IMG/VR virus record: IMGVR_UViG_3300017914_002346
Direction: 5' to 3' (one strand)
Source of the DNA: a virus
Lineage: Duplodnaviria > Caudoviricetes
Length of the DNA stretch: 64,000 nt
Below are positions 14,121 to 63,315 of the stretch, piece after piece (positions within the stretch are counted from its first letter, which is position 1; every line of letters begins with the position of its first letter). Made by a program: the position numbers and the translations under genes. The notes beneath the pieces were generated by a model. The model was not told the DNA's origin. It searched no databases and saw only the letters and a program-made list of their open reading frames with translations.

Positions 14121-14547
14121 TCCTATAGCTTTCTGAAACAATAGCAGATGCGTATGCGTATGCTTCAGAAATATTTTTAGCTTTTCTTAACTTGCTTTTT
14201 AAAATTCTATTCTGTGAAGCTTTAACTTCTTCGATTTCAAATAACTCAAGTTTTTTATTAAACAACTCTTCCTGCTCGTTGTTTTGTTTAATAACTTTTT
14301 CTTTTTCTTCTGATTTTGGCTTTTTTCTATTCCAATGCATTTCACTATGCTGTGTAATAGTTTCTTCTCCAAACTGAGAAATAATTTTTGCAAAATCGGG
14401 ATTAATAGAACCTGTATCGGTTAACTTATTAACAATTGTATAAACACTTTGAACTCCACCCTCAGGTGTAGTAGTCTCTAACATACAATGTATCATTTCT
14501 TTTTTTTCATTATCAAAAATAGGGTTTGTATAAACCATTCCGCTCAT
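14113..14547 (-). CDS. Hypothetical protein
   Basis: ORF coupled by an ATGA overlap to the upstream structural gene. Confidence 0.7.
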   Translation of the reverse strand: MSGMVYTNPIFDNEKKEMIHCMLETTTPEGGVQSVYTIVNKLTDTGSINPDFAKIISQFGEETITQHSEMHWNRKKPKSEEKEKVIKQNNEQEELFNKKLELFEIEEVKASQNRILKSKLRKAKNISEAYAYASAIVSESYRND

Positions 14548-15440
14548 CCTGTTCTTCTCCATAATTTATATACTGTGTTGTCGCTTGAAGTAGTAAGAAT
14601 AGTGTTACCTGTATAATACCCGGTAAAAGTACCATAGTTAACACCTGCATAGTAAAGTATGTAGTTACCTGAGTAAGCTACGTTACCTTGATCTTTTAAT
14701 GTATCTTTAACGTCCACACCCGCTTGTACCCATGTACCTGTAGCTGGTGCTGTAGGTTGAAAAGCATACGTACCGATTAATTTAGTTTGAATAATGTTTG
14801 CTAATCTAGCTGATAGAGACTGTATTTCACTATCACCCATTTCTATTAGACCTGGACCTGAGGAATCATTAATCTTTAACGGTCTTTGACCACCATCTAT
14901 TTCTGAAATACCAGGACCTGTACTTTGTTGTAAGTAGTATGTAACTGATGTTCCATCTACTTGTGTATCAGTTAAAGTACCTCTTTGTGTATGATTAGCA
15001 ACAGATGCTGAGGTAGAGAAAGTATAAACACCATAAGCTGTACCAGCAGCTATTTTGTTGAGACAAGTTTGAAGAATAGTCGAATCTAAGCTGTTATCAT
15101 TAGATTCAATTAAACCTACCGCAACATTACTATCACTATCTATTTCAACAGGTCTAATAATATTAGACTCGTCATCTGAGTCTGTAACTTGATAAAGAGT
15201 TGTAGTAGTACTTGATGTTGATCCTGTAGCTGGATGAGTACCTACCGCTTCAGTTCTAACAGCATTAACGTATGAGCCAATACTAACCTTACCTGTAGCT
15301 GAACCTCCTACAGTTAAAGTTGCGCATGTATTATTCTGAGAGAAATTCAATAATACTAAATCAGCAATGTAACTTAGATCGCTATCTTGTGCTTCAATTA
15401 CACCGCCATTGTTTAAATCAATTACTACTGGTCTTGCCAT
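14544..15440 (-). CDS. Putative virion structural protein with three internal repeats
   Basis: T/S/G-rich; RP(V/L)xI..G(V/L)IExxD three times; DSD motifs. Confidence 0.6.
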   Translation of the reverse strand: MARPVVIDLNNGGVIEAQDSDLSYIADLVLLNFSQNNTCATLTVGGSATGKVSIGSYVNAVRTEAVGTHPATGSTSSTTTTLYQVTDSDDESNIIRPVEIDSDSNVAVGLIESNDNSLDSTILQTCLNKIAAGTAYGVYTFSTSASVANHTQRGTLTDTQVDGTSVTYYLQQSTGPGISEIDGGQRPLKINDSSGPGLIEMGDSEIQSLSARLANIIQTKLIGTYAFQPTAPATGTWVQAGVDVKDTLKDQGNVAYSGNYILYYAGVNYGTFTGYYTGNTILTTSSDNTVYKLWRRTG

Positions 15441-15450
15441 AATCTAATCC

Positions 15451-16584
15451 TTAAGGTGTATCTGAATCGTGTTGTAATACACTTCCAGAAAATGCTGTGC
15501 TACCATCTACTCTCTTAATAGTAAATCTTTGAGGATGAGTAAAGGTGCTTCCCGCAAAAGTAATCTCACTATCTATATTAAGCTTTCCTACTGATAATTT
15601 ATTACCTTGAGCAGAAGAAGACCAAATTTTTCTCCAAATAGCATATAAAAGATTACCATTACCATCTGAATCATATACTACATATTTTTGAGCTACTAAA
15701 CTATCACTATCAGTAGTTCTAATATTGTATTGATAATCAGAATCATCTGTAATTGATGTATCTAACCAATACAATTCTCCTTGTTCAGAGTCTTTATTTT
15801 GTATCCACAAGTTACCAATATTTAAAGCTTTTTCGGGCGGTGTGTTCTTTACAATAGGAATATTGTTAAGCTCAATTATTTCGTATTCTTCTCTAGGATT
15901 ACGTTGAGCTATTTTATGACCTGATGCAACTGAACCTGCAAAGTCAGTTAAGAATATTGTTGAACCTGAATGTGAGATTAACCTACCATTACCTAATGTT
16001 CTTCTTACACCACCACCCTGATCTTGATCAAAGTCAATAATAGTACTAGCTGAAGTATTAGTTAGAGAAGGTGTGCCTGAAAGATTAACTCTAAGAATAG
16101 TTTTTGTAGTAAAGTCAATATATCTGGCAAAGTCTGAATCTTGTGTAAATGTTGCTGTACCTGTTGAATTATAATATGTTACAGAATTAGATGTAGAAGA
16201 AACATTAGAAGCTCCTACCTCTGCTGTAGCTGCATTTTTAATTTGAGTAACTACATCAGCAATCACAGTATCAGAATCAATGTTTAATGATTTAGCATTA
16301 CCATTAATATTATATCCTAATGTAATTGTATCTGAATCATAATCAACATCTTGAATAGTAATAACAAAACCAGCATTTTGATTGAATGTAGTTACTGTTT
16401 GCGAGTATTGAAATGAAGTAAATCTTTGTCTCTTAGTATACAATTTCCTCGTAATGAGGTTCATTGCAATTTCACCTTCAAGCACTTGACTTGGAAGTGG
16501 TTGACCTTCTCCGTTTACACCGTTAATTCTAGCTCTTCGGTGTTGTACGAAACCTCTTTGAATTTGGGTATCACTATCAATCAT
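15451..16584 (-). CDS. Putative tail fibre / fibre-associated protein
   Basis: N-terminal QHRR..P..GEIAMN..KLY motif typical of T4 gp36/gp37-type fibre N-termini; 8 DSD. Confidence 0.65.
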   Translation of the reverse strand: MIDSDTQIQRGFVQHRRARINGVNGEGQPLPSQVLEGEIAMNLITRKLYTKRQRFTSFQYSQTVTTFNQNAGFVITIQDVDYDSDTITLGYNINGNAKSLNIDSDTVIADVVTQIKNAATAEVGASNVSSTSNSVTYYNSTGTATFTQDSDFARYIDFTTKTILRVNLSGTPSLTNTSASTIIDFDQDQGGGVRRTLGNGRLISHSGSTIFLTDFAGSVASGHKIAQRNPREEYEIIELNNIPIVKNTPPEKALNIGNLWIQNKDSEQGELYWLDTSITDDSDYQYNIRTTDSDSLVAQKYVVYDSDGNGNLLYAIWRKIWSSSAQGNKLSVGKLNIDSEITFAGSTFTHPQRFTIKRVDGSTAFSGSVLQHDSDTP

Positions 16585-17980
16585 CTACTCTTGCTCCTGG
16601 CACTAATAACTGAACCATACCTGGAAAAGGATCATCAGCAATTAAAATAATATTACCTGTTTGATCAACTATAGAACCTGTAGTAACTTGTTTATAAACT
16701 TGGCTTGGATTAGCATCTGCAAAACCATTGTATATAACAGGTCTACCTTTTCCGTCAGAGTCTAAATCTGGAGAGTTAGTAAATGCTCCGTCTGAGTCTC
16801 TACCAAATACAGCTTTTAGTCTTTTAAATTTATCTCTATTAGAAGATGTTTCTTGCTCTGTATTAATGTAATCATACAAGAAAGTATTAATTTGATTTAG
16901 AGCTTCTGAATCTGTTTTAGAAGCAGTCATTCTTCTATAGACTTGAAAAACTGGCTGAGATGTAGCATCATCAATATCATTTTGTTTTGATGTAGGAGCT
17001 ACAGGTAGTATATACTGACCGTTAAGTAACTCTAATTCTCCACCAACTGTTAAGTTAGGTTTATTCCATTCAATCCAATCAGCTGATTCAAAATTATCTT
17101 GTCTAGCATTCATTACTTGTTGTGTGCTAGTAAGTGTAGTTCTTCTTAGAATCCAACCAGTATCAGGACCCTGATATGTAAAGATCATAGTATTGTCTTG
17201 TGCAGTGCTAAAGTTCACATAAGATCTTCCACTACTATCTACAAATTTTTGATCTAACTTTGGATAAGTTGTAATTACATCAGAGTCAATATAGGTTTGA
17301 TCTGTAAAGTTTACTCTCTTATATACAGGGTAAAACTTTTCACCGTTATGATCAGTAATAGCAACTGCATCTGAATCAGGATATGAACCTGATGCTTCAG
17401 GTGTGTTAGTTTTCCATTCAGTTACTTGAGCAGTTTTTCTAAACTCATATGGTGTAGTCCAAAAAGAAATATTTTTATGCTGCCATGATGAAAACGAATC
17501 TCTAATTTCTACAACATCACCAGCTCTTGCTAAAGGTAAAACCATATGTACTGTTCTACCTGCAGAAACTTCTCTCAAGTCAGCTGTAATTCTTTCACCT
17601 CTAGATAAGAAATACCATTCACTATCTCTATAGATATCTGGAATACCATCAGCATTTGAATCTACAAACACACTTTCACTATCTACACCATAACCATAAT
17701 TATTAATAGAATCTTTAGGTGTTGCAGGTCCACCTGATTTAAACTGTACAATAGTGTATTTTCCTGCAGGGTGCAATTCACCAACTTTATATTCATAATC
17801 CTGAAACGGTCTTCTATATCCATAGAAAGCATTATTAGGATCATTGCCTATCGGGTTATCACCAAAGTTAGAATAAATGTCAGCAAACAGGTTATTGATT
17901 TTCTGTCCACCTCTACGAGCAGAATCACCTGTACCTGAATCTGGTGTTACACCTAAATTAATTAAATCTCTTGCAGCCAT
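16577..17980 (-). CDS. Baseplate wedge gp9/gp10-like protein
   Basis: INLGVTPDSGTGDSARRGGQKINNLF N-terminal motif; LP..GDVVEIRD..SW motif. Confidence 0.7.
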   Translation of the reverse strand: MAARDLINLGVTPDSGTGDSARRGGQKINNLFADIYSNFGDNPIGNDPNNAFYGYRRPFQDYEYKVGELHPAGKYTIVQFKSGGPATPKDSINNYGYGVDSESVFVDSNADGIPDIYRDSEWYFLSRGERITADLREVSAGRTVHMVLPLARAGDVVEIRDSFSSWQHKNISFWTTPYEFRKTAQVTEWKTNTPEASGSYPDSDAVAITDHNGEKFYPVYKRVNFTDQTYIDSDVITTYPKLDQKFVDSSGRSYVNFSTAQDNTMIFTYQGPDTGWILRRTTLTSTQQVMNARQDNFESADWIEWNKPNLTVGGELELLNGQYILPVAPTSKQNDIDDATSQPVFQVYRRMTASKTDSEALNQINTFLYDYINTEQETSSNRDKFKRLKAVFGRDSDGAFTNSPDLDSDGKGRPVIYNGFADANPSQVYKQVTTGSIVDQTGNIILIADDPFPGMVQLLVPGARVDD

Positions 17981-17994: not shown

Positions 17995-18861
17995 CTATAT
18001 TAAGCCAAAATCGCGAACAACCTTAACAATGTTTCCATCTGAGTCACTTAAGTTTAGAACTGTAGGACCTATTCTATAATCACTGTCAAGTACTGCATCT
18101 GAGTCAGAAGCTGTTACATTTACAAATCCAACCTCAGAACCTATAATATTAGAAGCTCTAGTTAAAGTATCAAGCTCTGGAGATCTTCCATCTGAATCTC
18201 TTCCTGGGATAGCTAACATTGCTCTTGAATCAAAAATTACATTTGATGTTACAGCTGGGCCCCATAGATAAATTTTAGCAGTAAATTCAAAAGTCCATTC
18301 TACTAATCTTCTATCTCCCAAATCACCTGTCCAATCATCAGCCCATGTAGCAGCTGTCAATATGATAGGTAGGTCATAAGTATTAGTAGGAATTGGAGTA
18401 TCAGAATCGTTATCTAATGGAAAGTTTCTAACTCTAACAGTGTAAGCAGGAGTAAAGAAGGGTAATATTTGTTCTGCTATTTGCCAACCATCATTTAAAT
18501 TTTTAGTTGTAAGATACATAGTAAAATCTAAATTGTACGGAGTAGGTGAATGTACTCTCTGTCTTGGTATACCTAAAGTATCAGGTGTTCTAATTACAGT
18601 TTGTTTGTTAGTAATCTTTCTATCAATATCATAATTCATAGCAACTACTTCATATGACATTCTAGGAAGAAGTTTCTCAAACATTTCTTCTTCTCTTTCA
18701 AATTGTTTTTGAGCTTCTAACCATTTTTGTCTAGGGCCATAAGCTATTGGCACCGGTACAAACTTACCATCTCTTCTTTTAATTACAATATTATTAAACA
18801 AGCTGCCAAAGACAGCAACAGCTGATTTAATAGTTTCGTTATAAAAGTGTTGCCCTATCAT
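17995..18861 (-). CDS. gp15: Tail sheath stabilizer / terminator
   Basis: FYNETIK..FGSLFNNI..VPIAYGP..LPRMSYE..QILPFFTP. Confidence 0.93.
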   Translation of the reverse strand: MIGQHFYNETIKSAVAVFGSLFNNIVIKRRDGKFVPVPIAYGPRQKWLEAQKQFEREEEMFEKLLPRMSYEVVAMNYDIDRKITNKQTVIRTPDTLGIPRQRVHSPTPYNLDFTMYLTTKNLNDGWQIAEQILPFFTPAYTVRVRNFPLDNDSDTPIPTNTYDLPIILTAATWADDWTGDLGDRRLVEWTFEFTAKIYLWGPAVTSNVIFDSRAMLAIPGRDSDGRSPELDTLTRASNIIGSEVGFVNVTASDSDAVLDSDYRIGPTVLNLSDSDGNIVKVVRDFGLI

Positions 18862-19913
18862 TAGATTTCATCTATATTATTAATTACACCGGCGTATCCA
18901 AACGCCTCAGCTGTGTAGTCTTTATCCACTACCTTAGCTTTTTCTTTTAGAGGTTTACCTTCATTGTCATACTTAGTTTCTAATTGTGCACGTTCTTCTA
19001 TATGCATGTTTTCAGCCCAAGTATCAAAATGATCATCGCTATCATCAGCAATATTAAGATTCTTAGTATCCGAATCTGTAAGTTCAAGACCCGACTTCGC
19101 TCTAGCAATCGGTCCAGTGTCTGAATCAATGAGGTTAGCTTGTGTTCCATCCTTCTTATATTCCACAACTCTAGGGTTAAATTCGAGGTCTTCACCGCTA
19201 AGCTCAAACAATCTACATCTTAATTTATATTGATAATTGTCTCCTATTTGATAAAAAGCACCGTCATGATAAGTTGTAACTCTTAAAATTTCAAATACTT
19301 TAGGAATATACTGCTCTTTGTTTTGTGCTGATCTACCAAAAGGGATTACAACTAAGTCACCTTCTAGAGGTCTAGATCTTTTAAATGTTTCTGCGTCATC
19401 ACTATCACCAGCAACTTTTAAGTCTGAATCAAAATTATTATATAAGTTTTCAAAATTGTTAATAGCTACTGAAAGAATAACTTCTTCTCTAAACTCAATA
19501 CCATAAGTAGTCATTACATCGCCTTCACCTTCAAAACCAGCAGCTGCAACTAATAACATATCCATTTGTAGACCTCTATGAAATCTACTTTCTGGTCTTT
19601 CATTCCAAACATTATCTGTATAAGGAGAAGAACGAGGCATATAACGAACGGTAATACCGTTTACGTTAATAGACTCTCTTATCATATTTTGAATTAGTCT
19701 TTGTTCGTTTGTCGAGAAACGAGAAGAGGCTCCGAACTGGTTAATATAGCCATCGATATAAGTATTTCTAATGCCTGCTGAGATGGCATAGTCGCTATTG
19801 ACTTTTTGTATCGATCTGTTGAGATTAACGCCGAAGTCTGAATCATTGTCAGCATTGTTTAAGTCTGTTGTAGACGCTAATGTAAAACCTGAATAGTTGT
19901 TCTTTATTGCCAT
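18861..19913 (-). CDS. gp14: Neck protein
   Basis: EQRLIQNMIRESI..G..YMPR, RPLEGDLV, FYQIG..YKLRCRLFE. Confidence 0.9.
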   Translation of the reverse strand: MAIKNNYSGFTLASTTDLNNADNDSDFGVNLNRSIQKVNSDYAISAGIRNTYIDGYINQFGASSRFSTNEQRLIQNMIRESINVNGITVRYMPRSSPYTDNVWNERPESRFHRGLQMDMLLVAAAGFEGEGDVMTTYGIEFREEVILSVAINNFENLYNNFDSDLKVAGDSDDAETFKRSRPLEGDLVVIPFGRSAQNKEQYIPKVFEILRVTTYHDGAFYQIGDNYQYKLRCRLFELSGEDLEFNPRVVEYKKDGTQANLIDSDTGPIARAKSGLELTDSDTKNLNIADDSDDHFDTWAENMHIEERAQLETKYDNEGKPLKEKAKVVDKDYTAEAFGYAGVINNIDEI

Positions 19914-20680
19914 TAGCCATAGTATCCGGAATCGAACCCTCTTTGTGAAAAACGTAAATGTGCTTCTGTAATTGCATCACTAACGTTTCTTGCTTTAATA
20001 TCTAAATTTGAATTAGTACCTGCTTCTGTTTGCACAAAATTATCATAAAGAGATTTCTGTTTAGCTGCTGTCATATCAGTGTCAGCAGTTCCGGCTTTAT
20101 ACTTAGCAATAGATGTTTTAAAATCAAATTGAATGTTATCAGCTTTACTCTGATAAACTACTTTGTAATTGTTGTTACTCTTATCATATTGTAAAATTGA
20201 ACCCGCGTGTAGAACAACATCACCTTCAGCGAGATCAATATTATCAGAAACAATATTTGGATATGTAGACTTCCAGGAAGTATAACCATTAGCTCTTAAA
20301 GTCGTTTTCAATACCGCTATATTCTCATCACTAATCATAGTAAGAGGGAGTTCTGAATAATTTAACACACCTAGGAAAGGTCCAAAAAATTCTAATCTAT
20401 TAAGCTCTTGATCTAGAATTTCACTTGTTCTATATTCTGCTTCAATAAAGTTGTTTATTTTAATAAAGGCTGTACGTAATGGATCACCATCATTAGAGTT
20501 AGGTGAAGTACCTACATCTACAACAGTTGATTCAGTAGTAATTCTATTAGCACTTGTATATTGTATAATACCAGTATCAGAATCAATAACGTTAGGAATA
20601 AGAGTAGGTTCAGAGGCTGAACGACCTTTTGGAAATAAGTGGTGATCTAATCTTCTATTTGTTGATGCGTATCTAGCCAT
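19913..20680 (-). CDS. Structural protein with gp9/gp10-like N-terminal motif
   Basis: DVGTSPNSNDGDPLRTAFIKINN. Confidence 0.6.
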   Translation of the reverse strand: MARYASTNRRLDHHLFPKGRSASEPTLIPNVIDSDTGIIQYTSANRITTESTVVDVGTSPNSNDGDPLRTAFIKINNFIEAEYRTSEILDQELNRLEFFGPFLGVLNYSELPLTMISDENIAVLKTTLRANGYTSWKSTYPNIVSDNIDLAEGDVVLHAGSILQYDKSNNNYKVVYQSKADNIQFDFKTSIAKYKAGTADTDMTAAKQKSLYDNFVQTEAGTNSNLDIKARNVSDAITEAHLRFSQRGFDSGYYG

Positions 20681-26571: not shown

Positions 26572-27999
26572 TCAAAAACTTAATATGAAATTCATAGATT
26601 CAATCTGATCTTGAGATCTTATAAGAGGTGTTGTTTTCCAATCAGATACAATTATATTACCTGAGTTGAAAACTACCTCTCTATCAAAAGTTTTATTAAT
26701 AGTATGAATTTTGTTAATTCCATCATTTAATGAGACTTGTTCACTATCTGTAAACTTATCATTTTCTTTATCATTAATATAGTTAATGTAATACACTCTA
26801 TCTAAGTCCACAGAAACAACTCTACCTCTTCTACCGTCATCAGTAGGGTATGGAATAATAATATCATTTACATTGAATGTTGAAGTGTTATCTGTTTTAA
26901 AACTTTTACAAGCTACATAAAAATCTTGCGTCGCGATTTTATTAGTATTTACATCAATAGGGTTTCTAATTAAATTACACATTTGATATTGATTTTGCGC
27001 TAACGGTAAAAAACTATCTTGAGGAATATTTCTTGCTACTAACATAATATTTTTAGCATTAAGATCTTCTGTACTGTTAGATCCATGTCCTAATCCGTCA
27101 GATATTCTTGCTGAAAGACCTGTAATCTTTCTACCATCTTCATCCACTACTTTTAATAAACCTTGATAACCTAACCCTTCACTTATTAAAGTAGGTACAA
27201 AAGAATTAATATCTGAATCAAATTTTATAGTAGCTTCAAAATGTTGTGTAATAAGATCGCTATCATTTCTTGAATCAGTAATTCTAACTTTAATTTCTCT
27301 TTTTAACTGCCAATCGCTATCTCTACTAGTTAATAAAGCATCACTATCAATAGTTACATTGTATATAGAACCCACTGAAGCATTTTGTTGTACAGCATAT
27401 TGTAAGTATCTGTTTGTACCTGCTACTAAAGTTTTAGCTTCTTCTGCAGATACTTTCTCTGGTACAGGTATATATTCTGAGTTTAAAAATCTTACTGCAT
27501 CTGAATTACTAATTGTATACAAATATTGCCATACATAATTATCACTAGAAGTAACAGGGGTTGCTGATGTACCTGTAGGAGGGTTTATTGAGGGTTTTCT
27601 TGGAGAAAATAGACATTTATAAACGTTTAATCTACCTACACCACTTACAAACTCTCTTAATAGTACGTACGAGTCGTTTGTAGAAGGCCATGCTTCGTAA
27701 GTTCTACCTTTTATCCAATCTACTCTTTTAACTGCTCTGCTAACACCACCTGGTAAAATTCTATGTAGTGTAGTTGTGTTTTGGTTATAAAAAGCTTGAT
27801 CATCTCTTCCATAGTCTGAATCAGCTCCACCAAAAAATTCTGATTCACTATCAAAACTACTTGAGTAATTGTAGTAATCACTATCATGAATAAAAGTAGC
27901 AGAAGCATAATATGTCTCATTATTAGTAGCTTCTTTGAGCTTACTATACATAGCTTCTGCTATAAGTAAATTAATATCACCTGTTACTTTAGCTGTCAC
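26572..27999 (-). CDS. gp8: Baseplate wedge subunit
   Basis: VYKCL..PTG..DNYVWQYLYTI..FL..YIPV; GHGS; R..DQIE C-terminus. Confidence 0.85.
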   Translation of the reverse strand: MTAKVTGDINLLIAEAMYSKLKEATNNETYYASATFIHDSDYYNYSSSFDSESEFFGGADSDYGRDDQAFYNQNTTTLHRILPGGVSRAVKRVDWIKGRTYEAWPSTNDSYVLLREFVSGVGRLNVYKCLFSPRKPSINPPTGTSATPVTSSDNYVWQYLYTISNSDAVRFLNSEYIPVPEKVSAEEAKTLVAGTNRYLQYAVQQNASVGSIYNVTIDSDALLTSRDSDWQLKREIKVRITDSRNDSDLITQHFEATIKFDSDINSFVPTLISEGLGYQGLLKVVDEDGRKITGLSARISDGLGHGSNSTEDLNAKNIMLVARNIPQDSFLPLAQNQYQMCNLIRNPIDVNTNKIATQDFYVACKSFKTDNTSTFNVNDIIIPYPTDDGRRGRVVSVDLDRVYYINYINDKENDKFTDSEQVSLNDGINKIHTINKTFDREVVFNSGNIIVSDWKTTPLIRSQDQIESMNFILSF

Positions 28000-30900: not shown

Positions 30901-31357
30901 AAGTTACTAACGGAAAAGCTAGATACTTTCCTTCTGAAGCTTCTATAATATTCTCTCTAGTTTCAAAAAGATCAATATCTTCATCATACAACATTCTAAA
31001 GAATAATTCAAAAGACTTGGGTGAACCTTTAGCAAGATATAAATCTCTTATCTTCTTAACTAAAAATCTATCTTTTACTTTAGAAGTTTCAATAGCAATA
31101 GGTAGTACTTCGTTTTTAAAATATTTAAAATATTTGTCTAAAGTACTGTCAATATCTTTATACTGAGCAGCATTGCTAATTATACCGCCAGGGTTATGAA
31201 GCTGTTTAAACAAATCTTTTACGTTTTTAGATTCACTATCGTTTCTTTTTTCAAGAAACTCATAATAAGCTTCAATAAACAGTTTAAATTTATCATCTGA
31301 CTCAGAGATAAATTCAGGTAAGTTATCGCTTATAAAAGGTTTAAGTACTTTATCCAT
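27989..31357 (-). CDS. gp7: Baseplate wedge initiator (gp7-like)
   Basis: LPEFI..FIEAYYEFLE, KGSPKSFELFFRMLY, IQDNYLYSNYTY, LHPAG; lies between gp6 and gp8. Confidence 0.75.
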   Translation of the reverse strand: MDKVLKPFISDNLPEFISESDDKFKLFIEAYYEFLEKRNDSESKNVKDLFKQLHNPGGIISNAAQYKDIDSTLDKYFKYFKNEVLPIAIETSKVKDRFLVKKIRDLYLAKGSPKSFELFFRMLYDEDIDLFETRENIIEASEGKYLAFPLVTFRVVNNASKLNDIDFTLAPISHSDDNFSTDSDIATSLSGQVLGKTGDSDKQQVIQVQLNFTYEFDSSQTYRITDQNDTTIFIDVKPMLSLTGITTKQNAPGYIPGDVIRVKSISANKNFNIIVDSVNPGSVTGIHFRDRGEFYKVNDLFEFSPATPGDGTGGTALISAVDSNGRITEVDGFKVRTGKLNNGFLADDFENVIVPITNGGSYRALPNLKITASSTSNQGLPYSKAPVSGQGAIFSPVSTNIGTIAKLNIFDRGYFNNASDISITAPMNIVTESPVNFDNGQVVSIQYLRQVNDSFLNDSDRIDITIRANKVINYDSDDLRYKIRTITLPIDFDSENFNWIDSEYKIDSDQGLSLATTSWKTKANRLNYEVTEDSDQGFKVRIYSKFINKLDSYHYNLLNNYKFNDSDYTFNWRNDFTDPRLGVDSEIAIWTNTGYFGLVNRIDSTKKNISIAQYENTLFPTDSDLELFDIPKNRILRVAGYNVATGKVAVRNKKPLTGVIASHNRARFEAQLKAFSESTKTFINEDGFLNSLSGGVIQDNYLYSNYTYIIQSNLSISLWRDKIKKTLHPAGMILLGETNLNQITPVNINVTAESSREVQDTKFTFDTALDHYSDPDLENRVTADNTRYESNSFLFYQQTNQNMYALRASNYERGYDEAIVSEYGTSWFDFEPVGLVRKEEVDYDGAYDSTLNYDSDELLKSVTSQDSDGSGYVKQLLDNFKKYNNTVQDFYKKESRTRRSYDPVQIASTKFIDPINELYNVYDSDLPVGFHLRWSDSESNVYRAIDYGRLKSTNDTRTFKWFNTDRKREMSFKKASDLNLAMRLDGTLTFKDQDGTEYKDIEAYERIWNEINQYRLDSEGWEINGYSSFIQNAKIKPRQLKVAYAERRTPDYQKVKTPFKVIVWDNLDSDNIIWNRHYQIGEDALLNNSAGTIFDWNSANANDDYEVWRDPITSMKGRKRDS

Positions 31358-33162: not shown

Positions 33163-33566
33163 TATCTAAGCCTTTTAAGTACTGTTTCAAAATCAGTAAC
33201 AATATTTTTGCTTAATATTCTATATTGTAAGTTAATATGATAAGCATTCTGATCTTGTAAATCTTCTATGAATAAATTAAGAATTTCTATTCTAGGTTCA
33301 TGATTTTGCAAAGTCTCTTTGATAGCGCTTCTTATTTCTTCAATAGTAATAGGATCCGCTAACTCAAAAAGTAAACCTCTAATATTACAGCCAAACAAAG
33401 GATTGAAAGGTCTTTCATAATAATTTGTATTAATCAAGTTTTTTACGCTTTGATTAATCGCATTTACATCAGACTTAGTTCCTATATCTCCTGTTATTGG
33501 GTTATTTGAAAAAGAGATATCAAAATCTTTAAATACATTTTTTGTTTCAAACGTTTGTTGTGCCAT
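33162..33566 (-). CDS. gp25: Baseplate wedge subunit
   Basis: AINQSVKNLI.T..ERPF.P.FG..LLFE..EPRI. Confidence 0.93.
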   Translation of the reverse strand: MAQQTFETKNVFKDFDISFSNNPITGDIGTKSDVNAINQSVKNLINTNYYERPFNPLFGCNIRGLLFELADPITIEEIRSAIKETLQNHEPRIEILNLFIEDLQDQNAYHINLQYRILSKNIVTDFETVLKRLR

Positions 33567-38082: not shown

Positions 38083-38379
38083 TTAACCCCCTGCAAACAC
38101 ATTAGGAGACCCAGATGCAGAAGCATTAGGTACCCAAGATCCGTGGCCGCCTGTAGAGTCTCCTTGTCTATGTACACCTATTCCATTAACAAAAACAGTA
38201 CCGCTTCCACCTGTAGCAGGATCACCACAACTAGTTGCATCTCCAATTCTCACTGTACTAGCATTATTAGTAAACACATTTGATGAACCTGAAGCATAAG
38301 CCGTTTGATGAAACGGGTTAGGTGTTGGTGATGCATGTCCTACGTGACTGTCTAATCCTACTCTAGTTACTGCTGGCAT
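38083..38379 (-). CDS. gp5.4: PAAR spike-tip protein
   Basis: MPAVTRVG, RIGD..CG, RQGD..GHG, GSPNVFAG. Confidence 0.92.
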   Translation of the reverse strand: MPAVTRVGLDSHVGHASPTPNPFHQTAYASGSSNVFTNNASTVRIGDATSCGDPATGGSGTVFVNGIGVHRQGDSTGGHGSWVPNASASGSPNVFAGG

Positions 38380-47248: not shown

Positions 47249-47481
47249 TGCCTGTATATAACTTTGTTAACGAACAAGGTGATATCGAGACTCATACTTT
47301 AAAGTATGCAGAGCTTGAACAATTTAAGAAAGATAACCCTCAACTTACTTACACTATAAGTACACCTAGTTTTGGTAATAGATCTATTGAAAGTGGTAGA
47401 TTACCAGATGCATTCAAAGATAGAATGAGGTTACTTAAAGAAAAACATCCTAAATCTAAAGCGGTAGATCACTTAATATAA
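47248..47481 (+). CDS. Hypothetical protein (FmdB-like N-terminus)
   Basis: MPVYNF..NPQL pattern; GGAG SD. Confidence 0.6.
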   Translation: MPVYNFVNEQGDIETHTLKYAELEQFKKDNPQLTYTISTPSFGNRSIESGRLPDAFKDRMRLLKEKHPKSKAVDHLI

Positions 47482-51224: not shown

Positions 51225-51253
51225 AAAAGAGGGTCTATAGACCCTCTTTTTTT
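51225..51253. terminator. Probable bidirectional intrinsic terminator
   Basis: Perfect palindrome AAAAGAGGGTCTATAGACCCTCTTTT between convergent genes. Confidence 0.85.
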
Positions 51254-53804
51254 ATAAATCAAACTCATCAGTTGGTGCTGTAAAGTTACTTGTATATACA
51301 GCTCTGTCAGATATTCTCCAGTCTTGCATATATCCCGTAAAGTCATTAGCGGTTAGGGAAACAGGTCCACAACCCCATTGCCATTCTGTACCATCAGCAA
51401 AGGCATATGTACCATTATTTGTATTTGTACCTTGAGATGTTCCATCAATGTATAGTGTCCATGTCCCAGAATTTCTTACCACTGCAACATGATGCCAAGT
51501 ATTTGCTGTAAATGATCCTGTTATCTGAACACCACTCTGCAATCCCCAAAGTTGCACTTGAGTATTGTAAGTAAATAAACCAAATGGAGTACTACTAGTA
51601 TATGTACTTGTACCAACTAACAACCTATATGATGTACTTTGTGTTGCTGTCTGATAGAACCAACCTTCTACTGTTAAATCATCTTCCAGTCCAAAATCCT
51701 GGACTTGCAATCTATCATCTCCGCCATCAAAATAGATAGAAGATGATGTACTAAATTTTCTTTGTGTAGTAGAAGCTTTTGTATTATTAATAAGCTGGAA
51801 GGTGTTTGCTGCTGCCGCATCATAAATATTTGCATCTGTTTTGTTGTTCATTAATAGTTTTGTATTGGATGTAGAACTGATAGGTTCAGTTGGAGGTGTA
51901 AATGCAGCGGTACGTACCGCTCCTCCTTGATCTAATCTTACATCTGCTAGATGCCCTGTAGCGTATTGTTGAGTTGATCCATTACTATCAACTCTTCCTC
52001 CAATTTGTATTAGATTATTTGCATTTGGTATATTTGTTGAATTTGTTGTTGATTGGTCTTCAACACCATTCACAAATATTTTTAGAGTAGTACCGCTTCT
52101 AGATATAGCTAAATGAACCCAAGTTTTAGCTAAAACTATCGCAGTTCCAGATGTAAGTGAAGTCCAACCTGAACCGCTACCAATGTACCCATACACCTTT
52201 CCATTAGTGTTGACTCCAAGTAAGAAACCTTCATGATCATTTACATTACCTTGACCAAATGCAACAAGATAATGATTACCAGCAGCTGGGATAGACAATG
52301 GATAATACCAGCATTCAAAATTAAAATCACCTGTTCCCATTGTATATTCATTATCAGCGCTTTCATTGTCAACTAGATAATCACCAGTACCATCAAAATA
52401 AACGGAACCTCCATCAATTGAATTCCAAGGTTCATAATCATAAGGACTTATAGGATGAGTTTCAACACCACCAAACCCTGTCATGGTATGTGCATAAGAA
52501 GAACTATCTGCAAGATATGGTAGTTGACAAGTTAATAATACTGTGTTAGTAACTGCTGTAAGTCTTTCAGTAGGTGGTGTAAATTCTGAATCGTAAACAC
52601 TTCGTCCTTTTACAATTCTTAAATCGCTTACATAGCCATCTAATCCACCGTTTACTTCATATCTACCTATTTGCATTTTTCTAGAAGATGTATAGATAGT
52701 TTCTGTCCCAGTTCTAGTAGCTACTTGTTCGCCATTTAAATATGTATACCATTTGTTTCCAGACCTGGTTGCTGCAAGATGGTTCCATTGATTAAGCGGT
52801 GGACTACCAAAAGATATATTAAACGCACTAGACTGTCCATTTGTTGATACTAAAAATCTAAGAGCAGCGCTAGAATAATACCACAACCATTCATTTACAC
52901 CAGCTATACTTCCTTGTTGCCATTTACCTACAACAACATCATTGTTTGTCCAACTATTAACATAAATCCAACATTCAATAGTAAAATCGCTATCAGTTAA
53001 ATTTAACGATGAATCATGATCAATATCAACATAATCACTAGTTTCTGAACCATCTGCTAAATAAACACTATACCCTCCTTTACGATAAGGTGTAAATGTA
53101 GATGCTTGTGGTGTACCGTTACGTGTAAATGATTGTGATGTACCATCTGAATCTAAGAAAGTGATATTTGAATTATATACATCATTACCGGTAGCCTTCA
53201 TTAGCAATAAAGTACTAGCAGAATTAGAAATAACATTTATAAAATTTAATGTGAATGTACTAACTGTCGAAGCAAAACTTATGCCATCCGAAGCTTTAAA
53301 AGTTACTGTTCCTGAATTAGTAAGACCTGGAGCTTCATTTTCACTGTCTGGAGTTAAAGTAAAGATTCTACCGTTATCGCTATCTTTTGTTATAGTAATA
53401 AAAGTATTAGCATCTGAATCAGCTGTTGCAGTATAAGTAATTGCATGACCATCACTATCATCTGCTAGTAATGTAACAGTTATAGCAGTATCAATAGTAA
53501 AAGTGTATAAAGTGTTTGCTTCTGTTTCCCAGTAAGGTGATGCATTAACTAATGCAACTTTGTACCAACCTGAACCATTATATATGTACAACCCATTATT
53601 AGAAGTAACAAAAGCCTGTGCGCCTGTAGTAGCTGAACCAGGTAAATCGCTTAAGTTAGTATAAACGTCAGTACCAGCAGAAACTGCAGCAGAACCTAAC
53701 ACAGCTGATGTCACTACAGTATCTGAGTCAATTAAATTAAATTTAACTGCTCCTGAATCTTTATCTAACATGTTTGCTATTTGTCTATTTTTACTCATAA
53801 TCAC
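51252..53804 (-). CDS. Fibre/adhesin with three LamG (ConA-like) domains
   Basis: FTIECW..W.H.A..R.G..Y.NG..GY..D.R repeated three times; N-terminal module shared with neighbours. Confidence 0.8.
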   Translation of the reverse strand: MIMSKNRQIANMLDKDSGAVKFNLIDSDTVVTSAVLGSAAVSAGTDVYTNLSDLPGSATTGAQAFVTSNNGLYIYNGSGWYKVALVNASPYWETEANTLYTFTIDTAITVTLLADDSDGHAITYTATADSDANTFITITKDSDNGRIFTLTPDSENEAPGLTNSGTVTFKASDGISFASTVSTFTLNFINVISNSASTLLLMKATGNDVYNSNITFLDSDGTSQSFTRNGTPQASTFTPYRKGGYSVYLADGSETSDYVDIDHDSSLNLTDSDFTIECWIYVNSWTNNDVVVGKWQQGSIAGVNEWLWYYSSAALRFLVSTNGQSSAFNISFGSPPLNQWNHLAATRSGNKWYTYLNGEQVATRTGTETIYTSSRKMQIGRYEVNGGLDGYVSDLRIVKGRSVYDSEFTPPTERLTAVTNTVLLTCQLPYLADSSSYAHTMTGFGGVETHPISPYDYEPWNSIDGGSVYFDGTGDYLVDNESADNEYTMGTGDFNFECWYYPLSIPAAGNHYLVAFGQGNVNDHEGFLLGVNTNGKVYGYIGSGSGWTSLTSGTAIVLAKTWVHLAISRSGTTLKIFVNGVEDQSTTNSTNIPNANNLIQIGGRVDSNGSTQQYATGHLADVRLDQGGAVRTAAFTPPTEPISSTSNTKLLMNNKTDANIYDAAAANTFQLINNTKASTTQRKFSTSSSIYFDGGDDRLQVQDFGLEDDLTVEGWFYQTATQSTSYRLLVGTSTYTSSTPFGLFTYNTQVQLWGLQSGVQITGSFTANTWHHVAVVRNSGTWTLYIDGTSQGTNTNNGTYAFADGTEWQWGCGPVSLTANDFTGYMQDWRISDRAVYTSNFTAPTDEFDL

Positions 53805-54064
53805 TCACTGTCTAATTCAGTTTGAATTCTATACCAACCTGTACCATTATAAAAATAATATTTGTTTGTTGAAGTAATAAAAGCTCTATCCCCTTGAGTA
53901 CCTGAACCTGGTAAATCATCAATAGATGTATAAGTAGTTACTAGACCTGATTCAGATGCTTTACCTTTTAAATATGATGCAACAATAGCATCTGAATCAA
54001 TAGCTACAGTCTCACCGCTGGCTCCTAAAACTCTAGCTAATCTTCTTGCGTTGGTTAATGGCAT
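53801..54064 (-). CDS. Short paralogue consisting only of the fibre N-terminal module
   Basis: DSDAIV..DLPGSG.QG..AFITS.N..Y..NG.GWY. Confidence 0.7.
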   Translation of the reverse strand: MPLTNARRLARVLGASGETVAIDSDAIVASYLKGKASESGLVTTYTSIDDLPGSGTQGDRAFITSTNKYYFYNGTGWYRIQTELDSE

Positions 54065-54080
54065 TTTTACCTCTATCTAT

Positions 54081-55295
54081 TTAATGATTAATACTTATAT
54101 AAGATCCATATAAACTTGCATCTAATAATTGTAAAGTTCTGTTAGTTGAAGTGGTCTGTCTTTTATTTGCAGAAACTGCTATTCTTGTAATATTTGAAGT
54201 TGATGATCTACCTAATTCAGACCAACTTGTGCCATTAGCTGAATACCACCAAGCAGCCTTTGTGTTTGCTGCATTTCTCATATAAGCCATCCAGAAGGCA
54301 CTAGTATTTCCTGCAGCAATAGTAGTTACATTTGTAGCATTACCCTGGGATGCAGAACCTCCATATGAACCATAATAAACTCTACTATCATAAGTATCAC
54401 CTGTATTTGATCCTGTATATTCACCAATATAACAAGCACCTCTATCGTTAAAACCACTATCAGGGTCTCTCATTTTAACCACTAGTAAATAGTTTTGTGA
54501 TGCTGTCCAGCCGGAAAAAGCAGGAGTAACATGTGTACCGTCAAAGAATTGATCAGTATCAATAGTCCATGTGTAATTACTAGAGTTGTAAGAAGAAACA
54601 CTTGCTACTGATACGCCAGGATGGTTAGCGTAAGCATCCAGTCTGTATAATGCAGCATTTTGCCATTGTGTTCCATTTGCAGAAGGTGTAATAAAGTATG
54701 TAGGACCTAACGCAGCTGTGACATTGAAAGTGGACGTACTGGTAATAAAGTTTACACCATCACTTGCTTTAAATGTAACTGTACCTGTTAAATCGTTTTC
54801 ACTATCCGTATTTTCTTTTAATGATGCAGTAAATACTCTACCGTTATCGCTATCTTTTGTAAGATTTAAGAACTGATTTGCATCACTGTCTAATGTAGTA
54901 GTATATGTAATAGTTTGAGACGGGTTATCACTATCACCCGCTTCAATTGCGATTTCTATTTCAGAATCATTATTACCATCTCCTAAGTCAAAACTAAAAG
55001 TAGAATTAGGTTCTGTAATCCAATAAGGTGTTTCGTTTAGTTTTAAAACTTGATGCCAACCATCATCATTTTTAATGTAAAAAAAGCTATTAGCTGAAAC
55101 AAAAGCTTGACTACCTGTAACTGCATCGCTATCTAAACCGCTTAACGCACTAACAACCTCAGTACCTGCACTTGGCACAAAAGCACCTTTACTCGCAGAA
55201 TTTACAATAGCATCTGAATCATAAGCAGTTAATCTTAACTTGTTAGTTCTACCTAAAAATATTCTTGAAAGTCTTCTTGTTCTACTACGTGCCAT
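54081..55295 (-). CDS. Fibre/adhesin paralogue
   Basis: Shared module TPYWITEP..AGDSD..LDSD..KDSDNGR..TFKASDG plus a distinct C-terminal domain. Confidence 0.7.
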   Translation of the reverse strand: MARSRTRRLSRIFLGRTNKLRLTAYDSDAIVNSASKGAFVPSAGTEVVSALSGLDSDAVTGSQAFVSANSFFYIKNDDGWHQVLKLNETPYWITEPNSTFSFDLGDGNNDSEIEIAIEAGDSDNPSQTITYTTTLDSDANQFLNLTKDSDNGRVFTASLKENTDSENDLTGTVTFKASDGVNFITSTSTFNVTAALGPTYFITPSANGTQWQNAALYRLDAYANHPGVSVASVSSYNSSNYTWTIDTDQFFDGTHVTPAFSGWTASQNYLLVVKMRDPDSGFNDRGACYIGEYTGSNTGDTYDSRVYYGSYGGSASQGNATNVTTIAAGNTSAFWMAYMRNAANTKAAWWYSANGTSWSELGRSSTSNITRIAVSANKRQTTSTNRTLQLLDASLYGSYISINH

Positions 55296-55310
55296 ATTAA
55301 TTCTCAGATA

Positions 55311-56546
55311 CTAAATCGTTAATGTATTAGCATAAGTTGAAGCATCAACTAATTGAACTCTTGGTTGGGGTGAGGTTGTCTGTCTAACTCCTGTAGTAGC
55401 GCTTATATATCCTACATTACCGTTAGCTGCTCCATCTGTGTCAAAATGCAATCTCCAACTACCATCCCAATAAGTCCAACCTCTTAATTTATTACCTTGT
55501 CTTCTTACAGCAACATACCAATTAGATTCACCCTCAGATATTCCTGTGTTATCTAAAGTAGCTGATACAAGACCTGGTGAATCCGTTCCTTCTGCACCTG
55601 CTGGTCCGCTACCGTTAAAACTAAAACCACCCCAATATCTTAAATAGTTACCGGCTTGATTATTAATATCACCAGAAGATAAAGTTGCATCAGATCTTTG
55701 TAACATCATATAGCCGCTACCTCTATTATTAAAATCTTGTGTAAAATTATCAAAGTACATTACGCAAAGATAATCATCATCAGAGGAAACATCTAATGCT
55801 TGAGCATAATAAACACCATCAAAGAAGTTACCATTATCCTGCTGCCATCTAGCAGCACCAGCATCATAGTTAGCAGTCCATGTACCACCACCATTATTGT
55901 ATGCGTCGTTAAGTACAAGAGTTGCATTACCCCATTCAGTACCATCAGCTGATGGGTTTAAGAATCTAGTTATATTAGTTCTAAAGTTAATTGTTACAGC
56001 TTTTGAAGCAAAACTTATTCCGTCAGATGCTTTGAATGTAATAATACCACTCTGATCATTATCACTATCAAAACCTTCTTTTAAACCTATGTTAAATATT
56101 CTACCATTATCACTATCTTTAGATACATCTGTAAATACATTAACATCAGAATCTAGAGTTGCTGTATAAGTTACATTTGTACCGTCAGAATCACCAGCTT
56201 CAATTACTAAGACAAAATCTGAGTCTACATTACCTCTATCTAACGTGTATGAGCTTGCAGGCTCTGTTATCCAATAAGGTGTTAAATTTATAAGTGCTTG
56301 TCTAAACCAACCATTGCCAGTAAACATATACAAGTTATTTGTACTAGTAACAAAAGCTTGATCACCATTGTTAGCACTGTTAGGAAGATCATCTACGTTA
56401 TCATATATTAAGGTTGTAACACCAGAAACTGAATCTCCTCTAGATGCAATATCAACTAAAGTATCACTATCAACTGTTTCTGTACGAACAGTGTCTGTGT
56501 TACCTATAAGTAGTCTTGATATTCTTCTAGATTTTGATCTCGCCAT
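55311..56546 (-). CDS. Fibre/adhesin paralogue
   Basis: Same shared module; late promoter at 56551-56557. Confidence 0.7.
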   Translation of the reverse strand: MARSKSRRISRLLIGNTDTVRTETVDSDTLVDIASRGDSVSGVTTLIYDNVDDLPNSANNGDQAFVTSTNNLYMFTGNGWFRQALINLTPYWITEPASSYTLDRGNVDSDFVLVIEAGDSDGTNVTYTATLDSDVNVFTDVSKDSDNGRIFNIGLKEGFDSDNDQSGIITFKASDGISFASKAVTINFRTNITRFLNPSADGTEWGNATLVLNDAYNNGGGTWTANYDAGAARWQQDNGNFFDGVYYAQALDVSSDDDYLCVMYFDNFTQDFNNRGSGYMMLQRSDATLSSGDINNQAGNYLRYWGGFSFNGSGPAGAEGTDSPGLVSATLDNTGISEGESNWYVAVRRQGNKLRGWTYWDGSWRLHFDTDGAANGNVGYISATTGVRQTTSPQPRVQLVDASTYANTLTI

Positions 56547-62452: not shown

Positions 62453-62734
62453 TTATACGGAAAAAGATTCACCACATCCACAAGATGCGGTAGCATTAGG
62501 GTTAATTACTTTAAGATAAGAACCACCTAATTCAGTCACATAATCAATAGTACAGCCTAATACAAACATTTCTGCCATAGGATCAACAACTAAATTAGCC
62601 ACTGTAGGACTATCATCTGTCACATCCCACACATATTGAAAGCCCGAACAACCACCACCTTTTACAGACAGATAAACATTAGGTTGCCCGACTTTCTCTA
62701 AATACTGTTTTGCTTCTTCAGTTACTGTTACCAT
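62453..62734 (-). CDS. iscA: A-type Fe-S cluster carrier (IscA/HesB family)
   Basis: VKGGGCSGFQY, IDY, NPNATASCGCGESF. Confidence 0.93.
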   Translation of the reverse strand: MVTVTEEAKQYLEKVGQPNVYLSVKGGGCSGFQYVWDVTDDSPTVANLVVDPMAEMFVLGCTIDYVTELGGSYLKVINPNATASCGCGESFSV

Positions 62735-63013
62735 CTATTTGAATATGTTGGGTGACCATTTACGAAGTTTTTTACGCTTCTCTACAATCATTTTAGGTAA
62801 TTCGTTTCTATCGATAAGTTCTTTCTCTACTAAGATATCCAACATAGTTCTTACATCAGCTATCTCTTGTTGTAGATTATAAACTGCAGCTGCTAATCGT
62901 TTCTTATCGATGTTATTTTTATCATTAGCAATACGAATGACTTTACTGCATGCCTGCACTAATTCACCACATTCTTCCATAGTACATACAAGCGCATCAG
63001 TGGTAGGGTTCAT
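62735..63013 (-). CDS. MazG-like NTP pyrophosphohydrolase
   Basis: EECGELVQA..QEIADV. Confidence 0.75.
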   Translation of the reverse strand: MNPTTDALVCTMEECGELVQACSKVIRIANDKNNIDKKRLAAAVYNLQQEIADVRTMLDILVEKELIDRNELPKMIVEKRKKLRKWSPNIFK

Positions 63014-63027
63014 AATATATCCTTATA

Positions 63028-63315
63028 TTATTTTATAAAACCTGTGTGAAACTCTGCTGACATCCACTGCTCAGCGTGAGATACTACATCCGAATCAGGG
63101 GATGTACCGGCTGTTGGATGAAACTTTTCTAATAGGTCGGTAATATTTTCAATTTGTGCTTCAGATTGATATACTCTAGAAGTTTCATCTGAATCGTCTT
63201 CAACAGTTCTTACATACTTAAGTAATTCAACTTGAAAATCAATGCCATCTGAATCCGCATCAGATTTTACCATGTTTAAAAAATCAATAGCATCTTGTTT
63301 AGTATTTAAAGCCAT
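63028..63315 (-). CDS. Hypothetical acidic late protein with 3 DSD motifs
   Basis: ATAAATA at 63340-63346, GGAG SD. Confidence 0.6.
   Translation of the reverse strand: MALNTKQDAIDFLNMVKSDADSDGIDFQVELLKYVRTVEDDSDETSRVYQSEAQIENITDLLEKFHPTAGTSPDSDVVSHAEQWMSAEFHTGFIK

Follow-up and report, generated by a model that had tools for sequence, protein, structure and literature searches.

Clade-restricted enrichment of the tripeptide Asp-Ser-Asp/Glu on tail-side virion proteins of uncultured marine T4-like myophages: a candidate serine-centred recognition tag

The 64,000-nucleotide stretch of viral DNA held as IMG/VR record IMGVR_UViG_3300017914_002346 (the window, by which the whole stretch is meant) spans the morphogenesis region of a T4-like myophage, marine and as yet uncultured, and the tail-side virion proteins that it encodes are marked, far beyond chance, by one short motif, Asp-Ser-Asp (DSD) or Asp-Ser-Glu (DSE), jointly DS[D/E]. 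The enrichment is specific to serine, restricted to one virion compartment and to one phage clade, and maintained by purifying selection that acts on the tripeptide as a unit. In our proposal DS[D/E] serves as a minimal recognition tag, or sequon, centred on its serine and read by a single trans-acting factor that would most likely be a serine-modifying enzyme; we put the probability of this reading at about 0.45.

In cells, short sequons are known that earmark many unrelated proteins for a single modification; none is known for phage particles, and full-text searches of one literature library returned no paper on an Asp-Ser-Asp motif in phage structural proteins. A sequon that directed a covalent serine modification here would be, for a bacterial virus, the first virion-wide code of its kind. 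If the serines are modified, abundant marine myophages would carry a chemical coat over the apparatus with which they recognise the host; host range, decay, and adsorption to particles could be influenced by it, and gene-based annotation would not see it. Even if they are unmodified, a tripeptide selected at more than 100 sites in one virion compartment still needs explaining. The motif also serves as a simple sequence marker for the exposed tail-side virion proteins of the clade, many of which lack a known family.

Extent, strictness, and conservation of the motif

When the residues of each protein encoded by the 60 translated open reading frames (ORFs) of the window were shuffled, 8.06 ± 2.67 DSD were expected, against 89 observed (z = 30); the same shuffles gave 5.96 expected DSE against 27 observed (z = 8.4). 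DSD is the most over-represented of all tripeptides in the window, the runner-up being PPP (z = 11), and on the outer virion proteins the excess of DS[D/E] is about 15 times chance. Every position is strict. Among DxD tripeptides the central residue is serine 89 times and any other residue at most 11 times, with DTD at 7 against 7.8 expected; only aspartate serves in the first position (ESD 5 against 6.2 expected, NSD 8 against 7.9); and among the D-S-x tripeptides only those closing with Asp or Glu are enriched. The variants DT[D/E], ES[D/E], NS[D/E], and DS[N/Q] lie at or below expectation, DT[D/E] in the outer proteins numbering 4 against 7.2. A first-pass annotation of the window had counted about 88 DSD and more than 20 DSE, and its figures for individual proteins, from eight in the fibre at 15451 to three in the protein at 63028, agree exactly with our recount; the specificity for Ser that it noted is borne out by the values above, as is the enrichment over composition-shuffled controls that it proposed to compute.

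The serine codons of the motif (TCA 38, TCT 22, AGT 18, AGC 8, TCG 3) occur in proportions near background, so selection acts on the protein; the mixed use of TCN and AGY codons, already remarked on in the first-pass annotation, rules out a DNA-level signal as the cause. All-against-all BLAST of the carriers found only the four fibre paralogues to be alike, the other 11 proteins being without detectable similarity, and the motif has therefore been acquired many times independently. The carriers form at least 12 unrelated families, in keeping with their earlier description as mostly unrelated, and module shuffling as the source of the motif is ruled out by the same comparison. An account of the excess as a by-product of composition, repeats, or DNA-level signals can point to the four fibre paralogues and to 18-residue repeats, which raise the raw count somewhat. 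Yet it fails against the per-protein shuffles, against the eleven unrelated non-repeat proteins that carry the motif, against the use of five common serine codons from both codon families, and against the chance-level counts of the near tripeptides DTD, ESD, NSD, and DSN. These controls exclude an origin in chance or composition, and we leave the by-product account virtually no probability.

The motif is confined to a compartment. The 15 outer virion proteins of the window carry 111 DS[D/E] against 7.3 expected, the 12 inner baseplate and tube proteins 3 against 2.5, and the remaining 33 proteins 2 against 4.3. The three inner occurrences lie in the gp5/27-like hub at 38379 (one DSD) and the gp53-like wedge protein at 40890 (one DSD and one DSE); the earlier statement that inner baseplate parts are free of the motif is accurate as to the lack of excess, but these parts are not strictly free of it. 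A wider profile came from G006, a 109-kb relative within the clade (gp15 59% and TerL, the large terminase, 68% identical), where 15 tail-side proteins hold 176 DS[D/E] against 9.0 expected and the other 105 proteins 8 against 14.9. Its per-protein counts (Table 1) assign the tag to the exposed tail side, not to the head, of the particle. The coat over the virion that had been envisaged at first is compatible with the tagging of tail, neck, outer baseplate, and fibres, but the capsid, portal, and tube of G006 show no excess (portal and tube 0, major head protein 1), and decoration would therefore not cover the whole virion.

The motif is equally confined to a clade, for the excess appears in every relative with a TerL at least 67% or a gp15 at least 59% identical. 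IMG/VR contigs retrieved by gp15 at 62–85% identity all show a roughly 10-fold or greater excess, and two at 31% show none; among contigs retrieved by terminase it is pervasive at TerL identities of at least 67% and absent at 55% or below. One member record, entered twice as L016 and L111 and among the closest relatives (TerL 87%, gp15 82%), has 107 DSD in 21.5 kb against 5.9 expected. It also encodes, immediately after the large terminase (L016:17339-20581, plus strand), a 1081-residue protein with 36 DSD and 7 DSE and no functional family match. INPHARED contains no phage close to the window at the DNA level. The closest cultured relatives, by gp6 and at only ~33% identity, are pelagimyophages (Mosig, HTVC008M), the methylophage Melnitz, and cyanomyophages, and in the ~96 kb of the pelagiphage Mosig that were scanned DSD numbers 7 against 9.2 expected and no tripeptide stands out. 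A related preference is seen in sister loci (L020, L021, L028, L031, L036, L048, and L095), which are IMG/VR marine myophage contigs retrieved by a GT-A glycosyltransferase profile: their large proteins are enriched in DSA, DSD, and DSS, not in DSE, as in L036 with 34 DSA against 3.3 expected and 19 DSD against 2.6. Such a clade-wide shift at the third position would fit a reader of altered specificity.

Across eight protein families, homologues keep DS[D/E] at ~80% of the sites found in the window. Serine is retained at 84% of motif positions against 52% for the other serines of the same proteins, and the first aspartate at 83% against 71% for other aspartates. Lost sites turn into unrelated triplets, the one-step neighbours DTD, DAD, and DSN being rare, and the unit is therefore selected as a whole. 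Alignments of gp15 and gp14 place the motifs in conserved columns, where DSD and DSE replace each other, with occasional loss, gain, or small shift in divergent members.

The surroundings of the motif are little constrained. Flanks in non-repeat proteins are nearly free, except that Pro is never found at +1 (0 against 5.4 expected) and acidic residues are depleted at −1. Those of the fibre repeats resemble a hydrophobic-staple N-cap, with Leu at −1 and Ile or Val at +2 to +4, a pattern that largely fades in globular, non-repeat proteins. Motifs recur every 11–13 or 18 residues in fibrous parts, the minimum spacing being six residues, and there are no DSDSD runs. An AlphaFold model of the gp8-like protein, built with nine homologues (predicted local distance difference test, pLDDT, 58; predicted template modelling score, pTM, 0.51), puts sites 39, 218, and 227 at the starts of short helices, sites 246, 261, and 418 in loops between strands, and the remaining two, 50 and 60, in a stretch of low confidence. 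The single-sequence model of the 33626 protein is unreliable (pLDDT 36) and was used for secondary-structure tendencies only; it is helical, with a break or a helix N-terminus at nearly every motif. The sites would accordingly seem to sit at turns and helix starts, as expected of a sequon and of a capping motif alike, and in these low- to moderate-confidence models the early suggestion that they map to exposed loops is supported for the exposed tail-side proteins, helix starts included.

The enzyme island beside the fibre genes

An island of enzyme genes (2274-14562) lies next to the fibre genes. Pfam alone finds no glycosyltransferase in it; more sensitive PHROG and profile tests point to three GT8-like genes, 0.4–8 kb from the fibre gene (Table 1). 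In the family of the 12141 protein the DxD is invariant in 35 homologues, 3 of which match Pfam Glyco_transf_8; the sole PDB match of the family profile, a weak one, is a GT8, and an Atlas search also gave a GT8 lead. The 7015 and 12141 proteins match the same Mosig genes, annotated as putative glycosyltransferases. The family profile of the 13476 protein matches only chains of glycogenin-1, a GT8 (best E 0.02), over the N-terminal half that includes the DxD. One of the four radical SAM proteins of the variable part has a weak, sub-threshold SPASM match. In the window, as in the 11 other clade records that extend this far, GT-A and methyltransferase-like genes adjoin those of the fibres, and a GT8-like enzyme is the only visible candidate for a writer, if a weak one.

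The island is far less conserved than its surroundings. Clade members that are ~80% identical in structural proteins have island genes that are 27–41% identical or missing. G006 possesses GT-A, methyltransferase-like, and AspH-like genes and lacks radical SAM, carbamoyltransferase, and PP-loop genes, and the variable-part genes of the window (2274..11586) are absent from the islands of both G006 and L012. Moreover, the two GT-A proteins of the window group, in a 153-sequence tree, with those of the DS[A/D/S]-type loci and not with those of their own clade. The 7015 protein is 55–59% identical to its counterparts in the DS[A/D/S]-type loci L020–L022 and 29–37% identical to those of its own clade; island cassettes have therefore apparently been exchanged between phage lineages.

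By its gene content the island is an ordinary pelagimyophage-type host recognition cluster. Such clusters are hypervariable, with GT8 the commonest glycosyltransferase family and radical SAM cassettes that come and go; their enzymes are read as altering the host O-antigen, and no peptide motif on virion proteins has been described for them (PMC7029224). The clusters of pelagi- and cyanomyophages and the island share a non-syntenic placement within the structural module and the association of fibre, GT8, radical SAM, and AspH-like genes, but the published cluster is placed at VrlC-gp14 (PMC7029224), and the island is flanked by the terminase on one side and by the fibre genes downstream of gp15 on the other. 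Mosig has a counterpart island with the same kinds of enzyme, yet no motif excess.

Wider searches for a writer gave little. Pfam and PHROG scans of the window ORFs (both libraries for non-structural and unassigned ORFs, PHROGs only for structural ones) revealed no Maf, GT-B, GT2, or kinase. No Maf match (PF01973) was obtained among the island ORFs even at E ≤ 5, nor in five clade records. GT-B (PF00534) was absent from those five records in a search whose positive controls worked. No GT-A was found in the 31-kb record of L016, which is ~18% of a genome. The 58108 and 59708 proteins, considered as hidden enzymes, gave no PDB sequence match. The first-pass annotation had credited the decoration to a neighbouring glycosyltransferase/Maf/radical SAM cluster. 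Three GT8-like and four radical SAM genes do occur, but no Maf was found in the window or the five clade records, the radical SAM genes are not conserved in the clade, and the supposed link to the cluster falters on G006, which lacks radical SAM, carbamoyltransferase, and PP-loop genes, and on the want of any common GT-A subfamily. The co-occurrence of motif and cluster that it proposed to check is not seen either, as islands are found in Mosig and many motif-poor loci and L016 has the motif with no island at the syntenic place.

Parallels and competing explanations

Of the systems with which the motif invites comparison, the nearest in acceptor is that of the staphylococcal GT-B enzymes SdgB and SdgA, which act on long tandem Ser-Asp (SD) repeats of secreted adhesins (PMC8561734; PMC3794999). 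SdgB O-GlcNAcylates (modifies with O-linked N-acetylglucosamine) the minimal synthetic peptide Asp-Ser-Asp (PMC8561734), a precedent by which a glycosyltransferase can recognise bare Asp-Ser-Asp. Both cases have an acceptor serine flanked by aspartates; unlike the staphylococcal substrates, the phage sites are isolated tripeptides at least six residues apart, with no tandem repeat and no DSDSD, on cytoplasmically assembled proteins, and no GT-B was found in the window or the five clade records. The general O-glycosylation motif of Bacteroidota, (D)(S/T)(A/I/L/V/M/T) (PMC8550257), is likewise a three-residue, Asp-Ser-type sequence spread over many unrelated proteins, and the sister phage loci are rich in DSA; the phage motif of the window differs in its third residue, Asp or Glu, and in not accepting Thr. 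The parallel with a Bacteroidetes-type sequon that had been drawn at the outset finds no support, D[ST][AILVMT] in the outer proteins of the window numbering 30 against 42.1 expected and being unenriched. Bacterial O-glycosylation of this kind acts on exported proteins, whereas phage virions assemble in the cytoplasm.

Mycobacteriophages offer the closest parallel in concept. Freeman et al., in 2023, reportedly described glycosylation of their virions and proposed that phage glycosyltransferases encoded beside structural genes decorate the phage's own virion proteins; capsid and tail-tube subunits are said to be glycosylated at Ser/Thr-rich C-terminal stretches. The window resembles these phages in having glycosyltransferase genes next to virion structural genes, and differs in that the tube of G006 has no motif and its major head protein one, that the tag is a strict tripeptide, and that the presence of glycosyltransferases does not track it. 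On these comparisons the phage system would stand nearest to SD-repeat glycosylation in acceptor chemistry and to mycobacteriophage virion glycosylation in concept, while being a member of neither.

The sequon reading is favoured because the tag is exact, directional, and specific to serine, occurs in at least 12 families, and is kept or lost as a unit, and because it is limited to a single compartment and a single clade, sister loci showing a shifted third residue. On this view the tag would have arisen repeatedly and independently, at surface loops and at the starts of helices, on tail-side virion proteins within a single clade, namely the sheath, the neck proteins gp13/14/15, the peripheral baseplate proteins gp7/8/9-10, the VrlC-like protein, and the fibres. 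A single trans-acting reader, most likely an enzyme, would act late in infection on the hydroxyl group of the serine, while tail and fibres are being assembled or earlier. Among candidate chemistries O-glycosylation leads, and the outcome would be a dense decoration of tail and fibres, not of the head. The writer may be a GT8-like enzyme, an enzyme supplied by the host, or the product of a gene that lies beyond the DNA at hand. A more committed version, in which the strict sequon directs covalent modification of serine, by a sugar or otherwise, at more than 100 tail-side sites per proteome and not on the head, through a writer that family libraries do not recognise, and in which sequon and writer co-evolve so that sister clades use D-S-[A/D/S], is a possibility that we entertain only tentatively. 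What survives of the sequon as first conceived is a short, directional, nearly context-free tag specific to serine; the attribution of its writing to the neighbouring island does not.

Several observations tell against a modifying enzyme. No writer was found among the genes examined in the window and the clade records, and five incomplete clade records (296 kb) yielded no GT-B/GT4, GT2, Maf, or protein kinase. The clade GT-A genes fall into at least five subfamilies in the 153-sequence tree, none of them common to all motif-bearing records, and ~25 loci with GT-A genes beside large proteins show no motif excess. GT-A, methyltransferase-like, AspH-like, radical SAM, and carbamoyltransferase genes are found in those loci and in motif-poor Mosig, and L016, with a full motif set, has only two small ORFs between its fibre and terminase genes. 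Confidence in the two structural models is low to moderate (pLDDT 36 and 58). Avoidance of the motif in non-virion proteins (2 against 4.3 in the window, 8 against 14.9 in G006) is no stronger than in Mosig, whose deficit is similar without any excess (DSD 7 against 9.2, DSE 2 against 7.6), and nothing can therefore be concluded from the scarcity of the motif there.

The main rival to the sequon reading is structural: DS[D/E] would be an unmodified acidic motif, an Asx-type turn or a helix N-cap, lying on exposed surfaces of the tail and perhaps binding seawater Ca2+ or Mg2+, for example as carboxylate rings along trimeric fibres or as cation bridges between fibres and sheath or neck, and fixed in the clade by descent together with selection for stability or fibre dynamics. 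Pairs of aspartates are a common metal ligand set, and helix N-capping boxes, hydrophobic staples, and Asx-turns are found in all proteins. The gp8-like model, in which three sites open short helices and the rest lie in loops, the helix N-terminus at nearly every motif of the 33626 model, the staple-like flanks and regular periodicity of the fibrous parts, and the failure to find a writer enzyme in the window and clade records all speak for this account. However, this phage's enzymes and its inner virion proteins have as many helices and turns and show no excess, so local structure alone is no explanation. Generic caps accept Ser, Thr, Asp, or Asn with many residues at N1–N3, and resemble the motif in their helix-start and turn positions and in the Leu at −1 and hydrophobic residues at +2 to +4 of the fibre repeats, whereas the motif is one exact tripeptide of a single compartment and a single phage clade. 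Its Ser is not replaceable by Thr, Asn, Gly, or Asp, nor its first Asp by Glu or Asn, and caps and DxD metal sites normally tolerate such replacements. Canonical calcium patterns are lacking in the outer proteins (D.D.DG only twice, D.[DN].[DN]G five times), marine relatives exposed to the same water do without the motif, the seawater-exposed major capsid protein of G006 has no excess, and the staple pattern fades in non-repeat proteins. On balance we think the structural account rather unlikely, though it deserves to be taken seriously.

Two further accounts rank lower. DS[D/E] might be a docking tag for a non-enzymatic partner, such as an assembly chaperone, a tail-side decoration or whisker protein, or a host surface component; this would explain compartment specificity and unit-wise conservation as well as a sequon does, it suits a motif confined to tail-assembly products with no head excess, and it is at ease with the finding that no modifying enzyme tracks the motif. 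Three residues are nevertheless very short for specific protein binding, each proteome has more than 100 sites in many kinds of structural setting, the analysis turned up no candidate partner, and the neck proteins that carry the motif lie far from host contact, all of which makes docking improbable in our view. About as improbable is that the whole 12-kb island, with its radical SAM, AspH-like, carbamoyltransferase, PP-loop, glycosyltransferase, and methyltransferase genes, is a dedicated DSD writer. Its position next to fibre and neck genes and the recurrence of the GT-A and methyltransferase-like genes in the window and the 11 clade records favour such a role; against it stand the poor conservation of most island genes (27–41% identity where structural genes have 80%), the swapping of cassettes between phages indicated by the affinity of the 7015 gene to DS[A/D/S]-type loci, the same enzyme kinds without motif excess in Mosig, the missing island at the syntenic place in L016, and the match of the island to a known hypervariable type of host recognition cluster (PMC7029224).

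Motif-bearing proteins and their neighbours

Genes assigned in the window (guanine-cytosine content 30–36%) include those for the large terminase, gp6, gp25, the gp5/27-like hub, gp53-like, gp48/54-like, gp7-like, and gp8-like proteins, gp14, gp15, the VrlC-like giant protein, and the fibres; gp32, gp59, and a lysozyme are also encoded. Features bearing on the motif are collected in Table 1.

Table 1. Island genes, motif carriers, and internal controls of the window, with PHROG-assigned proteins of the relative G006
Feature	Position	Strand	DS[D/E] sites	Assignment and remarks
Variable island part	2274..11586	mixed		4 radical SAM, AspH-like cupin, NodU-type carbamoyltransferase, 2 weak PP-loop-like, SGNH-like; Pfam; none linked to the motif
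Second GT-A paralogue	7015..7794	−		Same GT-A family, E 5e-51 against its profile; DxD 'ILDID'
Class-I methyltransferase / spermidine-synthase-like protein	11573..12157	−		Profile matches spermidine synthases, E 1e-5; adjoins GT-A gene
GT8-like GT-A glycosyltransferase	12141..12860	−		phrog_1962 'glycosyltransferase', E 1e-12; invariant D83-L-D85
Probable third GT8-like protein (weak evidence)	13476..14141	−		DxD 'YLDAD'
298-residue protein beside fibre gene	14544..15440	−	3 DSD + 1 DSE	
Fibre protein, 377 residues	15451..16584	−	8 DSD + 2 DSE	
gp9/gp10-like baseplate-fibre connector	16577..17980	−	4 DSD + 3 DSE	phrog_677, phrog_958 match residues 3-42 only
gp15 tail sheath stabiliser	17995..18861	−	5 DSD	phrog_227, E 3e-56, residues 1-209
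gp14 neck / head closure protein	18861..19913	−	6 DSD	phrog_460, phrog_679
255-residue structural protein	19913..20680	−	1 DSD	G006 orthologue has 5
VrlC-like virion protein, 1895 residues	20861..26548	−	3 DSD + 2 DSE	phrog_358, E 3e-266
gp8-like baseplate wedge protein	26572..27999	−	6 DSD + 2 DSE	phrog_438, E 2e-38
gp7-like baseplate wedge protein, 1122 residues	27989..31357	−	12 DSD + 6 DSE	PHROG matches residues 3-331, 632-850
gp6 and gp25 inner baseplate wedge proteins	31357..33566	−	0	Internal control; phrog_219 E 9e-133, phrog_261
489-residue protein	33626..35095	+	17 DSD + 4 DSE	12 consecutive 18-residue units, each opening with DS[D/E]
Four fibre paralogues (850, 87, 404, 411 residues)	51252..56546	−	18 DSD (6+1+5+6) + 5 DSE	
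95-residue protein	63028..63315	−	3 DSD	No family match
G006 tail sheath			5 DSD	All within residues 101-283; PHROG-assigned
G006 gp13-like adaptor			3 DSD + 1 DSE	PHROG-assigned
G006 tail tube, portal, prohead protease, scaffold			0 each	PHROG-assigned
G006 major head protein			1	PHROG-assigned

Many sites lie outside the parts of the proteins that match T4-type profiles: 4 of the 5 in gp15 fall within its C-terminal 210-288 extension, 16 of the 18 in the gp7-like protein outside the PHROG-matched cores, and every one in the gp9/gp10-like protein past the matched N-terminal part. Site positions in gp15 are conserved across 17 relatives; the gp14 sites are conserved too, DSD and DSE swapping. 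Homologues of the 15451 fibre from 13 relatives, 51–69% identical, bear 7–9 DSD apiece. The family of the 14544 protein is widespread beside fibre genes in marine myophage contigs, and its positional counterparts in close relatives are without DSD. The 20861 protein matches a Mosig protein annotated as putative VrlC. The four fibre paralogues are 31–43% identical in their N-terminal modules, and the 850-residue member matches PHROG virion and baseplate-wedge families.

The 33626 gene is the sole plus-strand gene amid the minus-strand baseplate genes. Sites 181-379 of its product follow at exact 18-residue spacing, and the repeat unit, approximately NVYQN-DSD-KISNLVTLIN, spaces its hydrophobic residues 3-4, as is typical of coiled coils that contain a stutter. 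The protein has no family match, and a single weak homologue was found (L004, 29%).

Some neighbouring genes merit a brief record. Within the island, the plus-strand gene at 6309-7028 encodes the one enzyme-like product in which a DSD occurs; at the N-terminus it resembles an SGNH hydrolase block (SGCSFT), with no supporting family match. The adjacent minus-strand paralogues 8818-9531 and 9528-10241, flanked by radical SAM genes, have weak PP-loop ATPase signatures (ATP_bind_3, QueC, and Asn synthase; E 0.04-0.15) and could serve a nucleoside or carboxylate-activating pathway, not sugar chemistry. The family of the 11573 protein has an invariant T-S-x-E-H (NTSCEHM in most) and is always found beside GT-A genes, at ~75 loci. 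The minus-strand gene 12853-13479 belongs to a family present at ~45 loci with 33–42% identity and an invariant G-W-H-x-N, His176, and further residues; by eye it resembles a cupin, and searches of Pfam, PHROGs, and PDB sequences gave no match. Outside the island, a small Fe-S cluster assembly protein (62453-62734, minus strand; PF01521, E 1e-10) with a 50% identical counterpart in G006 is encoded by this phage, which has four radical SAM enzymes. Between the tail and replication genes, a ClpX/ClpB-type AAA+ ATPase (47481-48629, plus strand; PF07724, E 3e-25) has a 54% identical counterpart in G006 and none in the scanned 96 kb of Mosig.

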